The notes under the pieces are model-generated. The model ran no database searches and was not told the DNA's origin. It was given only the letters and a program-made list of their open reading frames with translations. Positions 37,912-62,818 of a DNA stretch of 64,000 nt are shown here, in pieces (positions within the stretch are counted from its first letter, which is position 1; every line of letters starts with the position of its first letter). This DNA comes from an uncultured Candidatus Saccharibacteria bacterium. GTDB lineage: Bacteria; Patescibacteriota; Minisyncoccia; Phycocordibacterales; UBA2100. The stretch covers positions 62,523-126,522 of the forward strand of contig CAZQMS010000001.1 in NCBI GenBank assembly GCA_964594735.1, written 5' to 3'. Both the position numbers and the translations under genes were made by a program.

Positions 37912-39147
37912 TTACGCTGACTTACCCTGTGCCAAACGCCGGAGAGCCACGATGTATGCAGCTTCGCGGAGTGTTAGAGAATCTTTTTTTGCCTCTGTAA
38001 AGACCGCGCGAGCTGCCGACCGCATCTTGTCCTCGAGCTTTCTAAAGACGTCGTCCTTCCCCCATTTCTCGTCGTGTACGTTTTGATACCACTCAAAGTA
38101 CGACACCGCGACACCGCCCGCGTTGGCCAAGATGTCTGGAATCACAGTGACACCGCGCTCGCGCAATATTTCGTCTGCTTCCGGCGTTGTCGGGCCGTTG
38201 GCCATTTCTAAAATCGTTTTAGCGCGAATGTTTTGCGCATTTGCACTCGTTATCGAGTTCTCGAGAGCAGCGGGAACTGCGATATCGACATCGAGCGTCA
38301 GGACTTCGGATGCATCCAGTGCCTCCGTGCCACCAAAACCCGCTAGTGACCCGGTCGCCTTTTTGTGCGCTTCAAGTGAGTCGATATTCGATATGCCATT
38401 TTCGCTGCGAATCGCGCTGCGCGAGTCCGATATCGCGAGGATGCGTGCACCGGAAGCGAGCAAAAACCGGGCCAAATAGCTCCCCACGTTGCCAAACCCT
38501 TGAATCGCCACCCGCTTCCCCTCCAAGGGGACACCTTGGAGTGCGAGGATTTCAGAGAGTACGTAGCTCCCGCCGAGGCCTGTGGCCTCTGTGCGGCCCT
38601 CAGAGCCTCCCAGGGCGACGGGCTTGCCCGTCACAACGCCAGGCGCCGCCTTACCGACTACTTTTTCATATTCTTCCCGAATCCAAGCCATAATTTGGCC
38701 ATTGGTATTCACATCGGGCGCGGGGACATCGATTTCAGGCCCTATGTACGGCGCTAGCTGCCGGGCGAACTCCCGCGTGAGGCGCTCGAGCTCCCCCACG
38801 GAGAGCGACTTCGGGTCTACCTTCACGCCGCCCTTGCCGCCCCCGAAAGGCACATCGACGAGCGCATTCTTCATCGTCATCCAAAACGAAAGCGCCTTCA
38901 CCTCGTCCATGTCCACATGCGGATGGTAGCGGAGGCCTCCCTTGTAGGGCCCGAGGATGTTGTTGTGCTGGACGCGGTACCCTTCGAAGACGACGCGTGG
39001 ACCCTCGTCCATTTGTAGCGCCACGGGCACCTCGACGATGCGGTCGGGCGCTGTGAGACGCTGGTAGAGCGAGTCGCTGACGCCAGAGCGCGCCCGCGCT
39101 TTTTCGAGCTGCGCGAGTGCAGATTGCCAGGGATTTGCGGCAGACAT
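37912..39147 (-). CDS. gdhA: NAD(P)-dependent glutamate dehydrogenase
   Basis: GGLRYHPHVDMDEVKALSFWMTMKNALVDVPFGGGKGG signature; Rossmann GFGNVGS. ATG at 39147 is preceded by TAGGAT at 7-nt spacing. The track starts at a GTG at 39153. Confidence 0.92.
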   Translation of the reverse strand: MSAANPWQSALAQLEKARARSGVSDSLYQRLTAPDRIVEVPVALQMDEGPRVVFEGYRVQHNNILGPYKGGLRYHPHVDMDEVKALSFWMTMKNALVDVPFGGGKGGVKVDPKSLSVGELERLTREFARQLAPYIGPEIDVPAPDVNTNGQIMAWIREEYEKVVGKAAPGVVTGKPVALGGSEGRTEATGLGGSYVLSEILALQGVPLEGKRVAIQGFGNVGSYLARFLLASGARILAISDSRSAIRSENGISNIDSLEAHKKATGSLAGFGGTEALDASEVLTLDVDIAVPAALENSITSANAQNIRAKTILEMANGPTTPEADEILRERGVTVIPDILANAGGVAVSYFEWYQNVHDEKWGKDDVFRKLEDKMRSAARAVFTEAKKDSLTLREAAYIVALRRLAQGKSA

Positions 39148-39166
39148 GGGCACTATCCTAGCACCC

Positions 39167-54904: not shown

Positions 54905-55510
54905 TTACCCATTGTACCCTACAAAGGGTTCCCCTTTGTAGTCCATTGCTCGTATCTCGTCGCGACTATACAGACTCGATTCCAAAAGACGACTTTCCGG
55001 TCGCGCAAACTCAAAATAATCGACATAACTAGTGTACCTGCGATGCTTCCGATCAACAGGATTTCCGTGAATGTAGGAAAACAACCAGCGCAAGTAGTCA
55101 TCATCATCGATATGGCGCGATCGGAATGGGCGCGTAAAAAGTGGACCGCTCCGCTCGTACCGAGTATTGAAGTACATAGAGTATGCGGTCATAAGTTTTA
55201 GCATAAATCGGGAGACCCCGTCGTCTATCTTTTCGCGCAGTAAAAGATGCAAATGATTCGGCATCAACGCATACGCCGCTATCTCGACAAGCGTTTCCTT
55301 TCGCTGATGTTCGAATAATTTCACCAAGGGTTCCCCTTTGTATTTTGAGAGCAACTCCCTCATATTCACCGGGGTCGTGCTGTTGCACAGATATAGCAGC
55401 AACTGCAGTCGCCCAAAATCAGATTCACCTTTGCACACAACCATTTTGTCCACTCCGCGGGTATAGATGTGATAGTGCTCACCGACTACGAATGGCACCT
55501 TTCTCTCCAT
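54905..55510 (-). CDS. IS200/IS605-family Y1 (HUH) transposase-like protein / REP-associated tyrosine transposase (RAYT)-like
   Basis: ~201 aa; HYHIYTRG, HUH motif MPNHLHLLL, catalytic Tyr region YIHGNPV. Start at 55510 (MERKVPFVVGEHYHIY). No tnpB partner. Confidence 0.75.
   Translation of the reverse strand: MERKVPFVVGEHYHIYTRGVDKMVVCKGESDFGRLQLLLYLCNSTTPVNMRELLSKYKGEPLVKLFEHQRKETLVEIAAYALMPNHLHLLLREKIDDGVSRFMLKLMTAYSMYFNTRYERSGPLFTRPFRSRHIDDDDYLRWLFSYIHGNPVDRKHRRYTSYVDYFEFARPESRLLESSLYSRDEIRAMDYKGEPFVGYNG
54920..54940. repeat. REP-like imperfect palindrome caaagggTTCCCctttg (copy 1, overlaps the transposase 3' end)
   Basis: Read directly. Confidence 0.8.
55324..55342. repeat. REP-like palindrome ccaagggttcccctttgta (copy 2, inside the transposase ORF)
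   Basis: Read directly. Confidence 0.8.
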
Positions 55511-55524
55511 CGCATCATTGTCGT

Positions 55525-55545
55525 GCAAAGGGGAACCCTTTGCAA
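55525..55545. repeat. REP-like palindrome tgcaaaggggaaccctttgca (copy 3, inverted orientation, 15 nt upstream of the transposase ATG)
   Basis: Read directly. Confidence 0.8.
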
Positions 55546-55629
55546 TGGGAATACTGCGCAAACGCAGGCCCTGCATCCTGTCAGGGTTGCTTCGCGACGC
55601 AGGAGGTAGCGGCGCGTCATCGAGATGCA

Positions 55630-55962
55630 CTACTTGAGCTTGACCGCTGTGCCGTATGCAAGAATCTCAGCGCCGCCGTTCATTATTTGCGAAGTCGAGT
55701 ACCTGGTGCATATGATTGCATCCGCACCCATCGTGTGCGCCTCTTCTATCATGCGCGAAGTCGCTTCCTCGCGAGCTTTCTTCACGGCCTTTACGTAGCC
55801 GCGCACTTCGCCTCCGACGATTGTCATCAGACCTGCGAGGATATGGCTCCCGATGTGACGCGTCTGTATCGTGCTTCCCTCGACGAGTCCGAGGACTTGC
55901 GAAATCTCTCGCCCTGCAATCTGCTCGGTTGTTGTAATGATGATGTCGTGGTGCATATACAT
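55630..55962 (-). CDS. YbjQ/UPF0145 family protein (putative heavy-metal-binding)
   Basis: ~110 aa from the internal Met (MYMHHDIIITTTEQIAGREISQVLGLVEGSTIQTRHIG…). The track's upstream extension would overlap the next gene and is rejected. Confidence 0.75.
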   Translation of the reverse strand: MYMHHDIIITTTEQIAGREISQVLGLVEGSTIQTRHIGSHILAGLMTIVGGEVRGYVKAVKKAREEATSRMIEEAHTMGADAIICTRYSTSQIMNGGAEILAYGTAVKLK

Positions 55963-55970
55963 GCAGTATA

Positions 55971-57218
55971 TCAAACAGCGTCTCTTTCTTCCCAACGCGC
56001 GAGCATATCGACGACGAGCCCGCCCCACGTAAAGTCCCGTGCACCGAGACCCGCGCCTGTCTCCGGATGGTAGTACTCGCGAAATCCCGAAAGTTCGAGC
56101 AGCCGAAGTGATTGCTCGAGGATGCGCCCCGCGACATCCGTATACCCATAATTGAGGAGGCCCTGGAAAACGAACCAGTTTACCCCTATCCACACGGGCC
56201 CGCGCCAGAAGCCCTCCGGGTCGTAGGTCGCCTCGTCTGCGGATACCGTCGGCACCATGAAGTGCGTGCGAAATTCGTGCGGATTGAGGAGGTGCTTGTC
56301 GACGAGCACCCGCGCTTCGTCTTGCGAAAGCAGCTTCGCATATAGTGGCGCGAAGATGTGCCAGGTCTTGAGCTTCACCTTGAGGTACCCTTCGCTATAC
56401 GTCGGCCAATACAGCTCTCCGTCGTACATACGCTCGCGCATCGCCATCGCCACATGCATCGCCTGGTCGGTATATTTCGCGGCGTCCGCGTGCTCTTCGA
56501 GCGTCTCGGCGATGCGCGAGAGCGCGCGCAATTCCTCGACGAGAATGGCGTTGAACGGCACGTCTTTGACCCAAAAGTATTGCTTCATAAAGGGCGCGTC
56601 GAAGTGCCCTGCACGCAGAGCCTCCACGAGCTTCAGCCGGCTCTCAAAATTTTGCTGCAGCGATTGCACAGGCGGTAGTCCCAAGACACCGTCGAATCGG
56701 GGACTGTTGTCTTCCCCGCTCTCATCGGGATTGATAATGCCGGCAAGGTGATTCCCCCTCGGATCGCGAGCACTGAGGAGGTACGCCATGCATTCGCAAA
56801 GGTCTTTGTAGACTTCCCGCAAAAATGCTTTGTCACCATCTTTGCGGTAGATGCGCCACGCTGCCTCTGCGATAAGTGGCGGCTGCGTGATAGTGCTCGT
56901 CGTCTCTTTGCCCCAGTCGATTTTCACAAACCCGTCGCCGAGTTTCATCAAATCACCCTCGCCTCGATAAATCATGTGCGGCACCATCCCGTTGTCGAAC
57001 TGTGCCGAGAGGAGCGAGCGCAGCTCTTCCTTTGCATCGTTAGGAGAAAAATGATTGAGTACTATCGCGTGAAAGCACGAATCCCACATCCACTGAAATG
57101 GGTACGACATCGGCGATGGCACCGTAAACTGATGCCCGTCGACCACGCGACGATTGCGCAGAAGGAGTTCGTGCGAGAGCTCGCGAATATTTTGAATCCG
57201 TTCGCGAGCGATATCCAT
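55971..57218 (-). CDS. (alpha/alpha)6-barrel glycoside hydrolase, GH63/MGH1-like (mannosyl-/glucosyl-glycerate hydrolase- or trehalase-like)
   Basis: …FQWMWDSCFHAIVL…, …FWRGPVWIGVNWFVFQGL…, …GFREYYHPETG… are typical of GH63/GH37-type six-hairpin hydrolases. The exact family is uncertain. Confidence 0.65.
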   Translation of the reverse strand: MDIARERIQNIRELSHELLLRNRRVVDGHQFTVPSPMSYPFQWMWDSCFHAIVLNHFSPNDAKEELRSLLSAQFDNGMVPHMIYRGEGDLMKLGDGFVKIDWGKETTSTITQPPLIAEAAWRIYRKDGDKAFLREVYKDLCECMAYLLSARDPRGNHLAGIINPDESGEDNSPRFDGVLGLPPVQSLQQNFESRLKLVEALRAGHFDAPFMKQYFWVKDVPFNAILVEELRALSRIAETLEEHADAAKYTDQAMHVAMAMRERMYDGELYWPTYSEGYLKVKLKTWHIFAPLYAKLLSQDEARVLVDKHLLNPHEFRTHFMVPTVSADEATYDPEGFWRGPVWIGVNWFVFQGLLNYGYTDVAGRILEQSLRLLELSGFREYYHPETGAGLGARDFTWGGLVVDMLARWEERDAV

Positions 57219-57291
57219 TGCCCTAGCATACCAAAACGATGCGCGCGCCCCTCCCGGGGCGCGCGCTCGCAAGAGAGACGTTCACACAATC

Positions 57292-57675
57292 TTACACAAA
57301 GTACCCGAGCCAGGAGAGGTACGCGCCGATAAGCAACACAACCGCACCAGCAGCGGGGATGACTTTCGAGTCCACGGCAAAGTCGGCGCCCTTGTCAGCG
57401 ATGCTAGGCGCGACCGTGCAGACGATGCCTTTGAGGAGGAGCCCCCAACCGAGCAGAGACACGATGACCTGCGGCAGTGTTTCCCAGGCATTGTGCGCGA
57501 GGACTTGCGCGATGCCAGCAGCCATCGCCGCCATTCCAAAGAAGAGCACCGCAAAGGGCGCCTTCTCAAGGTCGCGATATATCTTCAAATAAAAACTCTT
57601 GCTCCAGAAGAAACCGACACCCACGGCGAAAAGGACTGGTCCCCAGAGCTGGGCGAGGAACATCGTTGTTTCCAT
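57292..57675 (-). CDS. Hypothetical 4-TM membrane protein
   Basis: 127 aa, hydrophobic throughout. No family recognised. Confidence 0.5.
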   Translation of the reverse strand: METTMFLAQLWGPVLFAVGVGFFWSKSFYLKIYRDLEKAPFAVLFFGMAAMAAGIAQVLAHNAWETLPQVIVSLLGWGLLLKGIVCTVAPSIADKGADFAVDSKVIPAAGAVVLLIGAYLSWLGYFV

Positions 57676-57789
57676 ATCTCGTCAAAAAGTTAGAGAGTAA
57701 TCGCTTTCGTAATTGTACCAACGTCGTCGCCCTCGGAGTACCTCTGCAGTGTATAACCCAACTACGCAGAATGTACTGTCGCTATGGTG

Positions 57790-62284: not shown

Positions 62285-62818
62285 TCAAAAATGGTCAGGG
62301 TTCTCAAGATGCATGAGCGCCATGATGACCGCGCCCTTGTTGTATTCAGTGCGATTCGTTCTGCCCTTCGCAAATACCCCGACAAAGCCTTCGTGCTCGC
62401 CTAGCTTCTCGTGCTGAGTGAGACCCGCCGCTTTCATGGCCTGACTTCCGTCCATGCCATTTTTCAAAATTGCTTCTATAACTTTCTTAGGCCACTCGTA
62501 CGCCTGCGAAAGACCCATGTGAATCTGCGCGCCGTCATAAATCGCACACACGGCCACTTCCATGTATCCGCTTTTCGTTTGAGGCACCGACATGAGCCCG
62601 CTTTCTATTCCAAAGCCGTAGTCGTTGCCAACAAACGCCTGCTTCGCCCTGTCGACAGCTCCGGCCACAGTTTCTTCGAGACTTTTTGGATGACCAAACT
62701 GGTCAATCTGTACATCGACACCGTACACCTCCGCTCCCTCGAACATGGGATAGTCTCGCAATATCTCGGCGACGGCGTTCACCTTTGTTCGATTCTTGGA
62801 ACCAACCCCGACTTTCAT
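62285..62818 (-). CDS. Inosine/xanthosine triphosphatase, YjjX/DUF84 family (non-canonical purine NTPase)
   Basis: 177 aa; MKVGVGSKNRTKVNAVAEIL… N-terminus and …GFGIESGL… are typical of YjjX. Confidence 0.7.
   Translation of the reverse strand: MKVGVGSKNRTKVNAVAEILRDYPMFEGAEVYGVDVQIDQFGHPKSLEETVAGAVDRAKQAFVGNDYGFGIESGLMSVPQTKSGYMEVAVCAIYDGAQIHMGLSQAYEWPKKVIEAILKNGMDGSQAMKAAGLTQHEKLGEHEGFVGVFAKGRTNRTEYNKGAVIMALMHLENPDHF

Follow-up and report, generated by a model that had tools for sequence, protein, structure and literature searches.

A single gene for a tyrosine transposase of the Y1/HUH type, accompanied by three copies of a hairpin of its own, lies in the DNA stretch of 64,000 nucleotides analyzed in this study (hereafter the window), which covers positions 62,523 to 126,522 of contig CAZQMS010000001.1 from an uncultured Candidatus Saccharibacteria bacterium (assembly GCA_964594735.1). 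The gene belongs to a large, undescribed group of class 2 TnpA_Y1 proteins that is specific to the Patescibacteria, which are ultra-small bacteria, and resembles the RAYTs, the tyrosine transposases associated with repetitive extragenic palindromes (REPs). A RAYT (or TnpA_REP) gene flanked by its cognate REPs is known as a REPtron (Nunvar 2010; PMC3333891, PMC3479197, PMC8266576). The interpretation that we favor, with somewhat better than even confidence, is that the locus is a sedentary, largely domesticated unit of this Patescibacteria-specific RAYT-like family, similar to a REPtron or a TIRtron (TIR, terminal inverted repeat).

The Y1 gene and its hairpins in the window

The gene is located on the minus strand inside a longer open reading frame (ORF; 54905-55630, 241 aa), and its true start is almost certainly the ATG at position 55510 (MERKVPF...), where it was placed because every homolog begins with MERK or MDRK. 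Three copies of the 17-mer CAAAGGGTTCCCCTTTG were found within 620 bp at this gene, and no other copy occurs in the window at two or fewer mismatches. The expectation by chance is 0.01 matches in the window, and none of the shuffled sequences (0/100) gave three matches; the copies named in a preliminary description of this DNA are thus real and lie essentially where it put them. A chance recurrence of a short palindrome, in favor of which only the short length of the repeat can be cited, is refuted by these numbers and by the repetition of the same architecture in dozens of independent loci (see below), and we regard its probability as negligible. The features of the locus are:

54905-55510, minus strand: Y1/HUH RAYT-like gene of 201 aa, with ATG at 55510 and TAA at 54907-54905
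54922-54938, plus strand: 3' copy of the 17-mer, an exact match to CAAAGGGTTCCCCTTTG
55324-55340, plus strand: mid-gene copy of the 17-mer, CAAAGGGTTCCCCTTTG with one mismatch
55526-55542, minus strand: 5' copy of the 17-mer, an exact match to CAAAGGGTTCCCCTTTG
54919-54941, minus strand: 3' hairpin, CTACAAAGGggaacCCTTTGTAG on the coding strand
55319-55345, minus strand: internal in-frame copy, TAC AAA GGG GAA CCC TTG GTG, encoding YKGEPLV (codons 56-62)
55524-55544, minus strand: 5' hairpin, TGCAAAGGgttccCCTTTGCA on the coding strand, with its centre 24 nt upstream of the ATG
54908-54914, no strand assigned: outer heptamer CCCATTG, beyond the 3' hairpin, half of an inverted repeat
55543-55549, no strand assigned: inverted partner CAATGGG, at the outer edge of the 5' hairpin

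In single-strand folding, the 5' hairpin has a 9-bp stem and a z-score of about -4.1 to -4.3, while the 3' hairpin has a 10-bp stem and a 3-nt loop (-8.9/-9.3 kcal/mol as DNA; z-scores of -5.8/-4.5). The loop of the 5' hairpin is inverted relative to the loops of the internal and 3' copies, and its palindrome, which had been placed at 55525-55545, is indeed present at this site but occupies, with its full 21 nt, positions 55524-55544. The 3' hairpin covers the final codons (DYKGEPFVGYNG-stop), ends 12 nt ahead of the stop codon and is not followed by a T-run. The internal copy, a homolog of the perfect palindromes inside the genes of relatives, is a decayed hairpin, because one substitution (TTT to TTG) breaks the stem; it has a 5-bp stem and a z-score of -0.8 to -1.0, which is no better than that of shuffled sequences. 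The heptamers CCCATTG and CAATGGG stand at both ends of the unit, and an inverted repeat therefore reaches beyond the hairpins.

A covariance model of the hairpin, built without the window sequence and then run over the 64 kb, recovered four sites only, namely the three local copies and one orphan. The scores were 26.9 bits for the 3' copy (E = 1.8e-5), 21.9 bits for the 5' copy (E = 7e-4), 15.7 bits for the internal copy (E = 0.067) and 23.1 bits for the orphan (E = 2.8e-4).

The preliminary description had taken the palindromes for cognate-type hairpins that bracket the gene, with the mid-gene copy truly within the coding sequence, which is borne out by our results. It had also placed all three copies in one reading frame. 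This holds for the internal copy, the frame of which is the same in 30 of 31 cases in the family. The 5' copy is non-coding DNA, 15 nt upstream of the ATG at 55510, and falls in the frame by coincidence only, because the upstream extension of the ORF precedes the true ATG; the 5' copies of relatives are spread over the three frames (30/20/15), and an in-frame stop codon stands between the copy and the ATG in 37 of 65 cases. The 3' copy shows a tendency only, sharing the frame of the internal copy in 14 of 24 cases.

A RAYT-like protein family of the Patescibacteria

The protein was recognized as a Y1/HUH enzyme by its match to the Pfam domain Y1_Tnp (34.8 bits, cut-off 23). The motifs HYHIY, HLHLLL and YIHGNP, read from the translation earlier, are present in the ORF, with H86/H88 forming the HUH motif and the catalytic Tyr146 located in YIHGNP, all of which are conserved in the family. 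The neighbors of the gene in the window are a YbjQ_1 and a DUF305 gene, and there is no tnpB-like gene, in agreement with the earlier description of a Y1 enzyme that lacks a tnpB partner.

Against the NCBIfam equivalog model for RAYTs (REP_Tyr_transpos) the protein scored 49.3 bits, which is under the cut-off of 80, as compared to 14.1 bits against the IS200 model (transpos_IS200, NF033573), which is under the cut-off of 55. An AlphaFold model based on 78 homologs has a pLDDT (predicted local distance difference test) of 90.8, with values below 50 in the C-terminal tail. A fold search of solved structures returned 4ER8, the E. coli TnpA_REP with a REP, as the top match (E = 1.9e-6), followed by the TnpA structures of IS608 and ISDra2; a sequence search of the PDB gave nothing with the single sequence and weak ISDra2 matches only with the family profile. 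The protein is closer to RAYT/TnpA_REP than to IS200, because of the difference between the two model scores (49.3 versus 14.1 bits), the Y-x3-NP motif and the top fold match to 4ER8.

A segment of 28 aa (residues 42-69), inserted between helix A and the strand in front of the HUH motif, is specific to the Patescibacteria family and is missing, according to the alignment, in the closest annotated relatives outside the candidate phyla radiation (CPR). In the model, the insertion consists of two short helices joined by a K-G-E-P loop, and it is exactly this loop that is encoded by the internal hairpin. At the other end, the protein of the window is without about 30 C-terminal residues that are found in most relatives. 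A C-terminal domain of the DnaA-like or helix-turn-helix (HTH) type was not detected with Pfam, which shows Y1_Tnp alone in eight full-length homologs (E<=5).

An indexed search for homologs yielded 336 matches, few of which carry a source name; those that do are called Patescibacteria, Paceibacterota or Kaiserbacteria, with one named exception, a partial "Nitrososphaera" record. Some homologs bear the JGI label "RayT". A library of 1.84 billion representatives yielded 78 clusters (50% identity) at E<=1e-30, a number that rises to 3,025 at E<=1e-10. The family consensus comprises the motifs NHxH, LFTRPF and Y[IV]xLNP, and lengths range from 220 to 235 aa. Outside the group, the annotated proteins that come closest are plasmid "transposases" that look like members of subclass 2.1; one of these, from a Sporomusa plasmid, contains Y1_Tnp and a sub-threshold match to Bac_DnaA_C and is 29% identical over 78% of the query. 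No relative was found in a search of 2.9 million viral contigs, and a full-text literature search returned no relevant publication on RAYTs in Patescibacteria or CPR.

Hairpin architecture across the family

The family comparisons were based on 84 related loci, 69 of them non-redundant, on contig fragments no longer than about 20 kb. In these 84 loci, a hairpin whose AGG-N5-CCT apex never varies typically precedes the ATG by about 40 nt and is seen again at the stop codon, and in about half of the loci a perfect palindrome is also found at codons 53-67, with stems of 7-16 bp whose sequence varies by lineage. In loci with such an internal copy, the same sequence is seen again 3-100 nt upstream of the ATG, often doubled, with a further copy at or just after the stop codon and sometimes more downstream. 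Among the 69 non-redundant loci, the internal copy is present in 30, and a hairpin of this kind occurs elsewhere in the coding sequence in none (0/69). The upstream hairpin was identified in 26 of the 30 loci with and 29 of the 39 loci without an internal copy, and a hairpin at or after the stop codon in 21/30 and 28/39, respectively.

The copies within one locus have in common the apex, the loop and the next 3-5 base pairs. The inner stem is lineage-specific, while the outer stem differs from copy to copy with its self-complementarity retained. A shared apex with copy-specific but paired outer stems is the pattern that structure-specific recognition with a sequence-specific apex would be expected to produce.

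Several observations on individual lineages can be added. The loci without an internal copy include a whole clade in which the insertion has the sequence DNFLRxxKNxLKNIFKEKRE, with one hairpin upstream and one downstream, both of the AGCAAGGactccCCTTGCT type (L147, L151-L153, L157, L160, L170-L173, L176-L179, L181, L183, L185, L188, L198 and L202). The asymmetric 5-nt loop is flipped between close relatives while the stems are unchanged (L129 versus L133, and L151/L157 versus L171/L172; the genes are 75-80% identical). In 13 loci, a DnaA-box-like motif, (A)AGTTATCCACA(G), adjoins the flanking hairpins or lies within about 20 nt of them (L134, L136, L141, L146, L156, L159, L164, L169, L170, L175, L190, L201 and L203); in L164 the terminal inverted repeats, of about 43 nt, have this motif as their outer part. 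Perfect TTATCCACA sequences number 19 within +-300 nt of the genes (102 kb) versus 29 in 687 kb elsewhere. The DnaA-box-like motif is not present in the window, where only the CCCATTG heptamer lies outside both hairpins; this heptamer may correspond, in degenerate form, to the AGTTATCCACAG motif that adjoins the hairpins of relatives (8/11 identity). A DnaA-like C-terminus of the Y1 protein was considered as the reader of the TTATCCACA motifs and was rejected, with a probability of 0.2% in an hhalign comparison with E. coli DnaA.

Selection on the internal hairpin

We compared 37 distinct internal hairpins, in all of which AGG and CCT are invariant. The 10-bp stem is paired at 85.9% as compared to 67.6% in column shuffles, a fraction that is inflated by the choice of loci for having the palindrome, and registers slid by 1-3 nt are paired at only 35-50%. 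The number of double-sided stem changes, which like the stem lengths is unaffected by this choice, is 65 versus 19+-4 in the shuffles, and none of 500 shuffles attains 65. Codon usage within the hairpin is equally restricted. The third base of P/S/T/A codons is C in 37/37 cases, against a background of 16.7% in the same genes, the third base of K/Q/E codons is A in 37/37 cases (background 66%), and Leu is encoded by TTR in 22/22 cases (background 41%). Judging from these alignments, selection at the internal copy acts on the nucleic acid and not on the peptide alone, because the synonymous sites are frozen and the stem changes are compensatory. Where it is present, the internal copy has been kept matched to the flanking copies, which argues for a function or for continual homogenization driven by the enzyme.

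A putative promoter at the 5' hairpin

A TATAAT-like hexamer ends about 6 nt (mode 6) before the ATG in 46 of 56 loci, as compared to 17 of 56 when the mirrored stretch upstream of the hairpin served as control. In the relatives, this -10 hexamer begins 27-28 nt from the centre of the hairpin, and the TTG of the 3' arm (CCTTGnn) is located 17 nt upstream of the hexamer. The arrangement would be that of a sigma-70-type promoter with its -35 element inside the 5' hairpin, and the transcript of the relatives is predicted to be leaderless. By analogy with the relatives, a similar promoter and a leaderless mRNA may be assumed for the window:

55517-55545, minus strand: putative weak promoter, with TTGCAA at 55545-55540, a 17-nt spacer that contains the hairpin apex, GACAAT at 55522-55517 and 6 nt to the ATG

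The distance between the hairpin centre and the ATG is 24 nt in the window versus about 40 nt in relatives. With its broken internal hairpin, weak promoter hexamers, short spacing and shorter C-terminus, the unit of the window looks slightly eroded compared to its relatives.

Internal hairpins that regulate translation had been proposed for this gene. A role in regulation is plausible, at the level of DNA and the promoter according to the evidence. Sequestration of the ribosome-binding site and ATG by the 5' hairpin, as in IS200, was tried as a candidate by RNA folding and rejected, since it was seen in L005 only and is inconsistent across loci.

The fixed spacing of a 5' hairpin over the -35 element, the position of the 3' hairpin at the stop codon, with T-rich sequence after it in some loci, and the DnaA-box-like motifs next to the hairpins, which suggest an input from host factors, are also what would be seen if the hairpins were ordinary signals read by the host, such as an operator or promoter and a terminator, and if the internal palindrome were a by-product of the Y-Q/K-G-E-P-L peptide. 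We consider this quite unlikely. A constraint on the peptide cannot give invariant synonymous positions or compensatory changes in the stem, nor can it explain that, in each lineage, the internal sequence follows that of the flanking non-coding copies. Moreover, the hairpin class is essentially confined to genes of the Y1 family, and the 3' hairpin of the window lacks a T-run.

Synteny and mobility of the locus

The window contains one Y1 gene, as does nearly every related locus, and most protein clusters at 90% identity are confined to one or two contigs. Genes that are at least 80% identical have homologous flanks of similar identity, as exemplified by L129 and L133, in which the gene and both flanks are each about 80% identical, and no pairs were found in which the gene is at least 90% identical and both flanks are unrelated. 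As far as the contig fragments show, the Y1 locus is sedentary, because the gene and its flanks diverge in parallel.

A gene order consisting of a tetratricopeptide repeat (TPR) protein of about 233 aa, the Y1 protein, a membrane protein and a secreted protein is common to at least 14 divergent loci. This order was observed in L002, L005, L006, L137, L145, L159, L169, L174, L175, L192, L194, L195, L201 and L203, and the recurrent downstream genes code for a protein of 187-196 aa with an N-terminal membrane helix and a secreted protein of 660 aa with a GHSQGG lipase-like motif. No Pfam domains were found in the 190-aa membrane protein or the 660-aa secreted protein, and these two neighbors are treated here as vertical synteny only, with no functional link. 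The TPR, membrane and 660-aa neighbors are all missing from the window.

We also compared the surroundings of the gene in the window to L204, a locus from the same sample (SRR15237806) and the closest relative of the upstream neighborhood. The two have in common a 127-aa ORF, a glycosidase gene and the YbjQ gene, corresponding to 55630-57723 in the window, and L204 is without the 671-aa Laminin_G_3 gene of the window. The closest named relatives of the glycosidase of the window are from Paceibacterota and other Patescibacteria, which assigns the window to this group. The synteny stops at the stop codon of YbjQ, after which come, in L204, a terminator-like hairpin and, on the opposite strand, a YkuD gene, while the window continues with the Y1 gene and then a metal-homeostasis-like cluster (DUF305/CopM-like, DUF1428 and a P-type ATPase). 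The Y1 gene is therefore the edge of a variable region. A clean empty site was not found, since L204 continues with unrelated DNA and not with DUF305, and the search for a close homolog of the DUF305 gene returned none. No switch in GC skew that would mark a replication origin or terminus was seen at the locus, and no known RNA families or tRNAs were identified in the window.

In the clade without an internal copy, genes that are about 80% identical are often without detectable similarity in the flanks, and this clade may be more mobile.

The preliminary description had considered a minimal IS200. In its strongest form, the gene would be an autonomous, still mobile insertion sequence of the IS200 type, with the flanking hairpins as the ends for peel-and-paste transposition and the internal copy as an accident or an alternative end. 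The bracketing of the gene by hairpins like the ends of IS200/IS605 is in its favor, as are the position of the window copy at the breakpoint of synteny with L204, the several neighborhoods of the family, the members of the clade just mentioned whose genes are about 80% identical without detectable flank similarity, and an exact orphan hairpin 5 kb from the gene in L203. We nevertheless find it rather unlikely. The score of 14.1 bits is far from the IS200 cut-off of 55, and the motif is Y-x3-NP and not Y-x3-Q. The gene is single in the window and nearly every related locus and is syntenic, its 90% clusters reside on one or two contigs, genes that are close to each other have homologous flanks, and identical copies in other contexts were not found among the loci compared. 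The same hairpin stands at both ends, unlike the distinct ends of IS608, and there is no fixed cleavage tetranucleotide and no relative in the 2.9 million viral contigs. The TTAC-like flanks that had been suggested do not hold either, as a single TTAC is located at 54905-54908 near the 3' hairpin, with no partner at the other end.

Dispersal of the hairpin

The density of the hairpin, counted as the apex with at least four further pairs, is 1.54/kb within +-400 nt of the genes versus 0.04/kb in the 673 kb farther off, a 38-fold difference. These 673 kb of the relatives contain 27 orphans, as compared to about 0.6 expected by chance (about 40x), which corresponds to about one orphan every 25-45 kb. 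The apex of most orphans is not that of the local hairpins, and an exact distant copy, the one 5 kb from the gene, was seen in L203 alone. The orphan of the window is:

38518-38544, minus strand: orphan hairpin, CTCCAAGGtgtccCCTTGGAG, with an 8-bp stem, in frame and encoding LQGVPLE

Its host ORF (37912-39153, minus strand) is glutamate dehydrogenase (GDH)-like as read from the translation. The orphan is located directly ahead of the dinucleotide-binding motif GKRVAIQGFGN, and its codon register is that of the internal copy of the Y1 gene. It presumably adds no length to the protein relative to other GDHs, and it may have replaced native GDH codons.

Neither a GT[AG]G foot nor a TTAC-type tetranucleotide at a fixed offset is conserved across loci, and GTAG occurs in the window only within the stem of the 3' copy.

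We also scanned reference genomes for the 17-mer, which was found in at least 117 stretches from unrelated taxa, with no Y1 homolog among the matches listed. A few unrelated genomes contain this same 17-mer, CAAAGGGGAACCCTTTG, in a highly repeated form, with no Y1 homolog in the 8-kb pieces. These are metagenome-assembled genomes (MAGs) of a Myxococcota (BF4_93; L029, L035, L045, L055, L063, L068, L073, L087, L107 and L120), an Acutalibacteraceae (L014, L043, L061, L079 and L123) and a Treponema (L023, L039, L066, L102 and L110), and in L068 three copies are spaced at about 125 nt. The CAAAGGGGAACCCTTTG repeats of the three MAGs look like unrelated families that share the palindrome by coincidence. 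In a relative's contig, L207, two adjacent AGG-N5-CCT hairpins (about 19-22 bits) are located at 1809-1870, between an 85-aa ORF and a sortase gene, with no Y1 gene within 13 kb.

Of the earlier suggestion of a RAYT with cognate REPs, the closeness to RAYTs and the cognate hairpins stand, while a classical, abundant REP or REPIN family does not, since there is one orphan in 64 kb. Uniqueness of the palindrome to this locus had been named as grounds for discarding the idea; it nearly describes the 64 kb, but it is too narrow a measure, as the hairpin class is family-wide and cognate. A classical RAYT might still have abundant REPs or REPINs elsewhere in the genome, under-sampled by the window and by the +-10 kb flanks of the relatives. 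TnpA_REP as the best fold match and the "RayT" names given by JGI would fit such a gene, and so would the inverted upstream doublets that resemble REPINs in L006, L129, L130, L131, L134 and L136 and the orphans at about 40 times the chance level, one of them in the window. This is, however, unlikely, given the 0.04 hairpins per kb away from the gene, the difference of most orphans from the local apex, the missing GT[AG]G foot and the score of 49.3 bits against the RAYT equivalog cut-off of 80.

Comparison to known systems

We compared the family to the systems that it resembles most. With REPtrons it shares the Y1/HUH fold, the Y-x3-NP motif and a single gene bracketed by one co-evolving hairpin, with 4ER8 as the best structural match, as well as a housekeeping-like, single-copy and syntenic mode of existence. 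It differs from them in the absence of a GT[AG]G guide and of high-copy dispersal, in the sub-cut-off RAYT score, in the 28-aa insertion before the HUH motif and in the 5' hairpin that is embedded in the promoter. Furthermore, the AGG-N5-CCT apex is kept across a family of phylum level, whereas REPs are species-specific.

REPs in frame inside tnpA_REP genes have been described for subclass 2.4 (Bertels group 4) of Cyanobacteria and Bacteroidetes, where they represent a peripheral extension (Quentin 2018, PMC6006769). They are located between HuH and Y, are of variable length and have a canonical GTAG or a "double-foot" (PMC6006769). The likeness consists of cognate hairpins both flanking and within the gene, with the frame intact. 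In the Patescibacteria, by contrast, the internal copy is single and fixed N-terminal to HuH (codons 53-67; insertion aa 42-69), and it is kept with compensatory changes over at least 30 lineages and without GTAG. The motifs also differ, being LF-T and Y[IV]xLNP in the Patescibacteria and WQ and YIxNNP in subclass 2.4.

The proteins of subclass 2.1, the TIRYTs, are associated with TIRs that contain GGGGWSAS, no REPs have been found with them, and they typically end in a DnaA_C-like tail (Di Nocera 2013, PMC3733652; Quentin 2018, PMC6006769). They have the motifs NH[VYF]H, FQ and Y[IV]HLNP and a length of about 238 aa. The closest annotated relatives of our family look to be of this type, with a similar length (about 225-240 aa) and similar motifs (NHxH, G.LF..RF and Y[IV]HLNP), and in both the flanking repeats can overlap the ends of the gene. 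In some of the related loci (L164) the flanks form TIRs of about 43 nt. In the Patescibacteria, on the other hand, no DnaA_C-like or HTH C-terminus was detected, the flanks are self-complementary hairpins, and GGGGAACC and GGGGAGTC do not match GGGGWSAS; the insertion and the internal hairpin are missing from subclass 2.1. On the basis of motifs and nearest relatives in sequence comparisons, the family appears to be closest to subclass 2.1/TIRYT.

The likeness to IS200 lies in the small size of the unit (about 620-700 bp) and in its one Y1 gene with a perfect palindrome on each side, of which the start-side hairpin may limit expression. The differences are Y-x3-NP in place of Y-x3-Q, the lack of multiple copies, the same hairpin at both ends, and a putative leaderless promoter over the hairpin in the Patescibacteria family, with no consistent sequestration of the ribosome-binding site.

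A possible mode of action and its meaning

We suggest that the Y1 protein would recognize its own hairpins once these are extruded as single-stranded or cruciform DNA, by analogy with the TnpA_REP of E. coli, an enzyme that binds REPs folded from single strands and cleaves and rejoins them (PMC3333891, PMC3479197, PMC8266576). Binding or extrusion at the 5' hairpin, over the -35 element, would then probably throttle the transcription of the gene, in an autoregulation in cis. Many insertion sequences have a promoter within the terminal repeat and are autoregulated in cis. The internal and 3' copies could serve as extra sites for the same protein, as roadblocks, terminators or occasional sites of cleavage and rejoining. 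Cutting and joining would be rare, seeding the few orphans and leaving the gene in place on observable time scales.

Several observations weigh against the interpretation as a sedentary, domesticated unit with working hairpins. A whole clade keeps the flanking hairpins without the internal copy, which is therefore not essential to the family. In 43 loci, the loop of the 5' and 3' hairpins has the same orientation in 21 cases, is inverted in 13 and differs by 1-2 nt in 9; such an unfixed orientation is hard to reconcile with strict strand-specific recognition, and it fits either recognition of either strand or flipping mediated by the palindrome. The promoter hexamers of the window are weak (8/12) and below the threshold of the consensus scan. 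The Y1 gene of the window lies exactly at the breakpoint of synteny to L204 (79% nucleotide identity), and members of the family are found in a number of different neighborhoods, with that of the window differing from the recurrent one. These last points argue against complete immobility, and the locus may have moved in the past.

It is a more tentative proposal, the probability of which we put well short of even, that the internal hairpin is a working cis-element, in which a coding sequence is at the same time the DNA substrate or operator of its own enzyme and has been matched to the promoter and stop-codon copies through the history of the family, possibly with an input from the DnaA boxes. 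If true, the locus would be a self-contained feedback module coupled to replication or transcription, made up of an HUH nuclease and three hairpins of its own, and not a transposon.

RAYTs are the textbook example of a domesticated bacterial transposase, and their role in the cell is still unclear. In-frame REPs within RAYT genes are already known from subclass 2.4, and the Patescibacteria family extends the concept of the REPtron and does not overturn it. It represents a stripped-down version of the RAYT system in genomes of about 1 Mb, in which a single gene is accompanied by two to five cognate hairpins and dispersed repeats are almost absent. The relation between protein and hairpin is directly testable here, as there is a readable recognition element, a copy at the promoter and a copy frozen in the coding sequence. 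The in-frame insertions of a REP in a RAYT gene, formerly seen as variable curiosities of one subclass, can be fixed and conserved, and the covariance model can be used to annotate the hairpins in genomes of Patescibacteria, where the genes are labeled only as "transposase".

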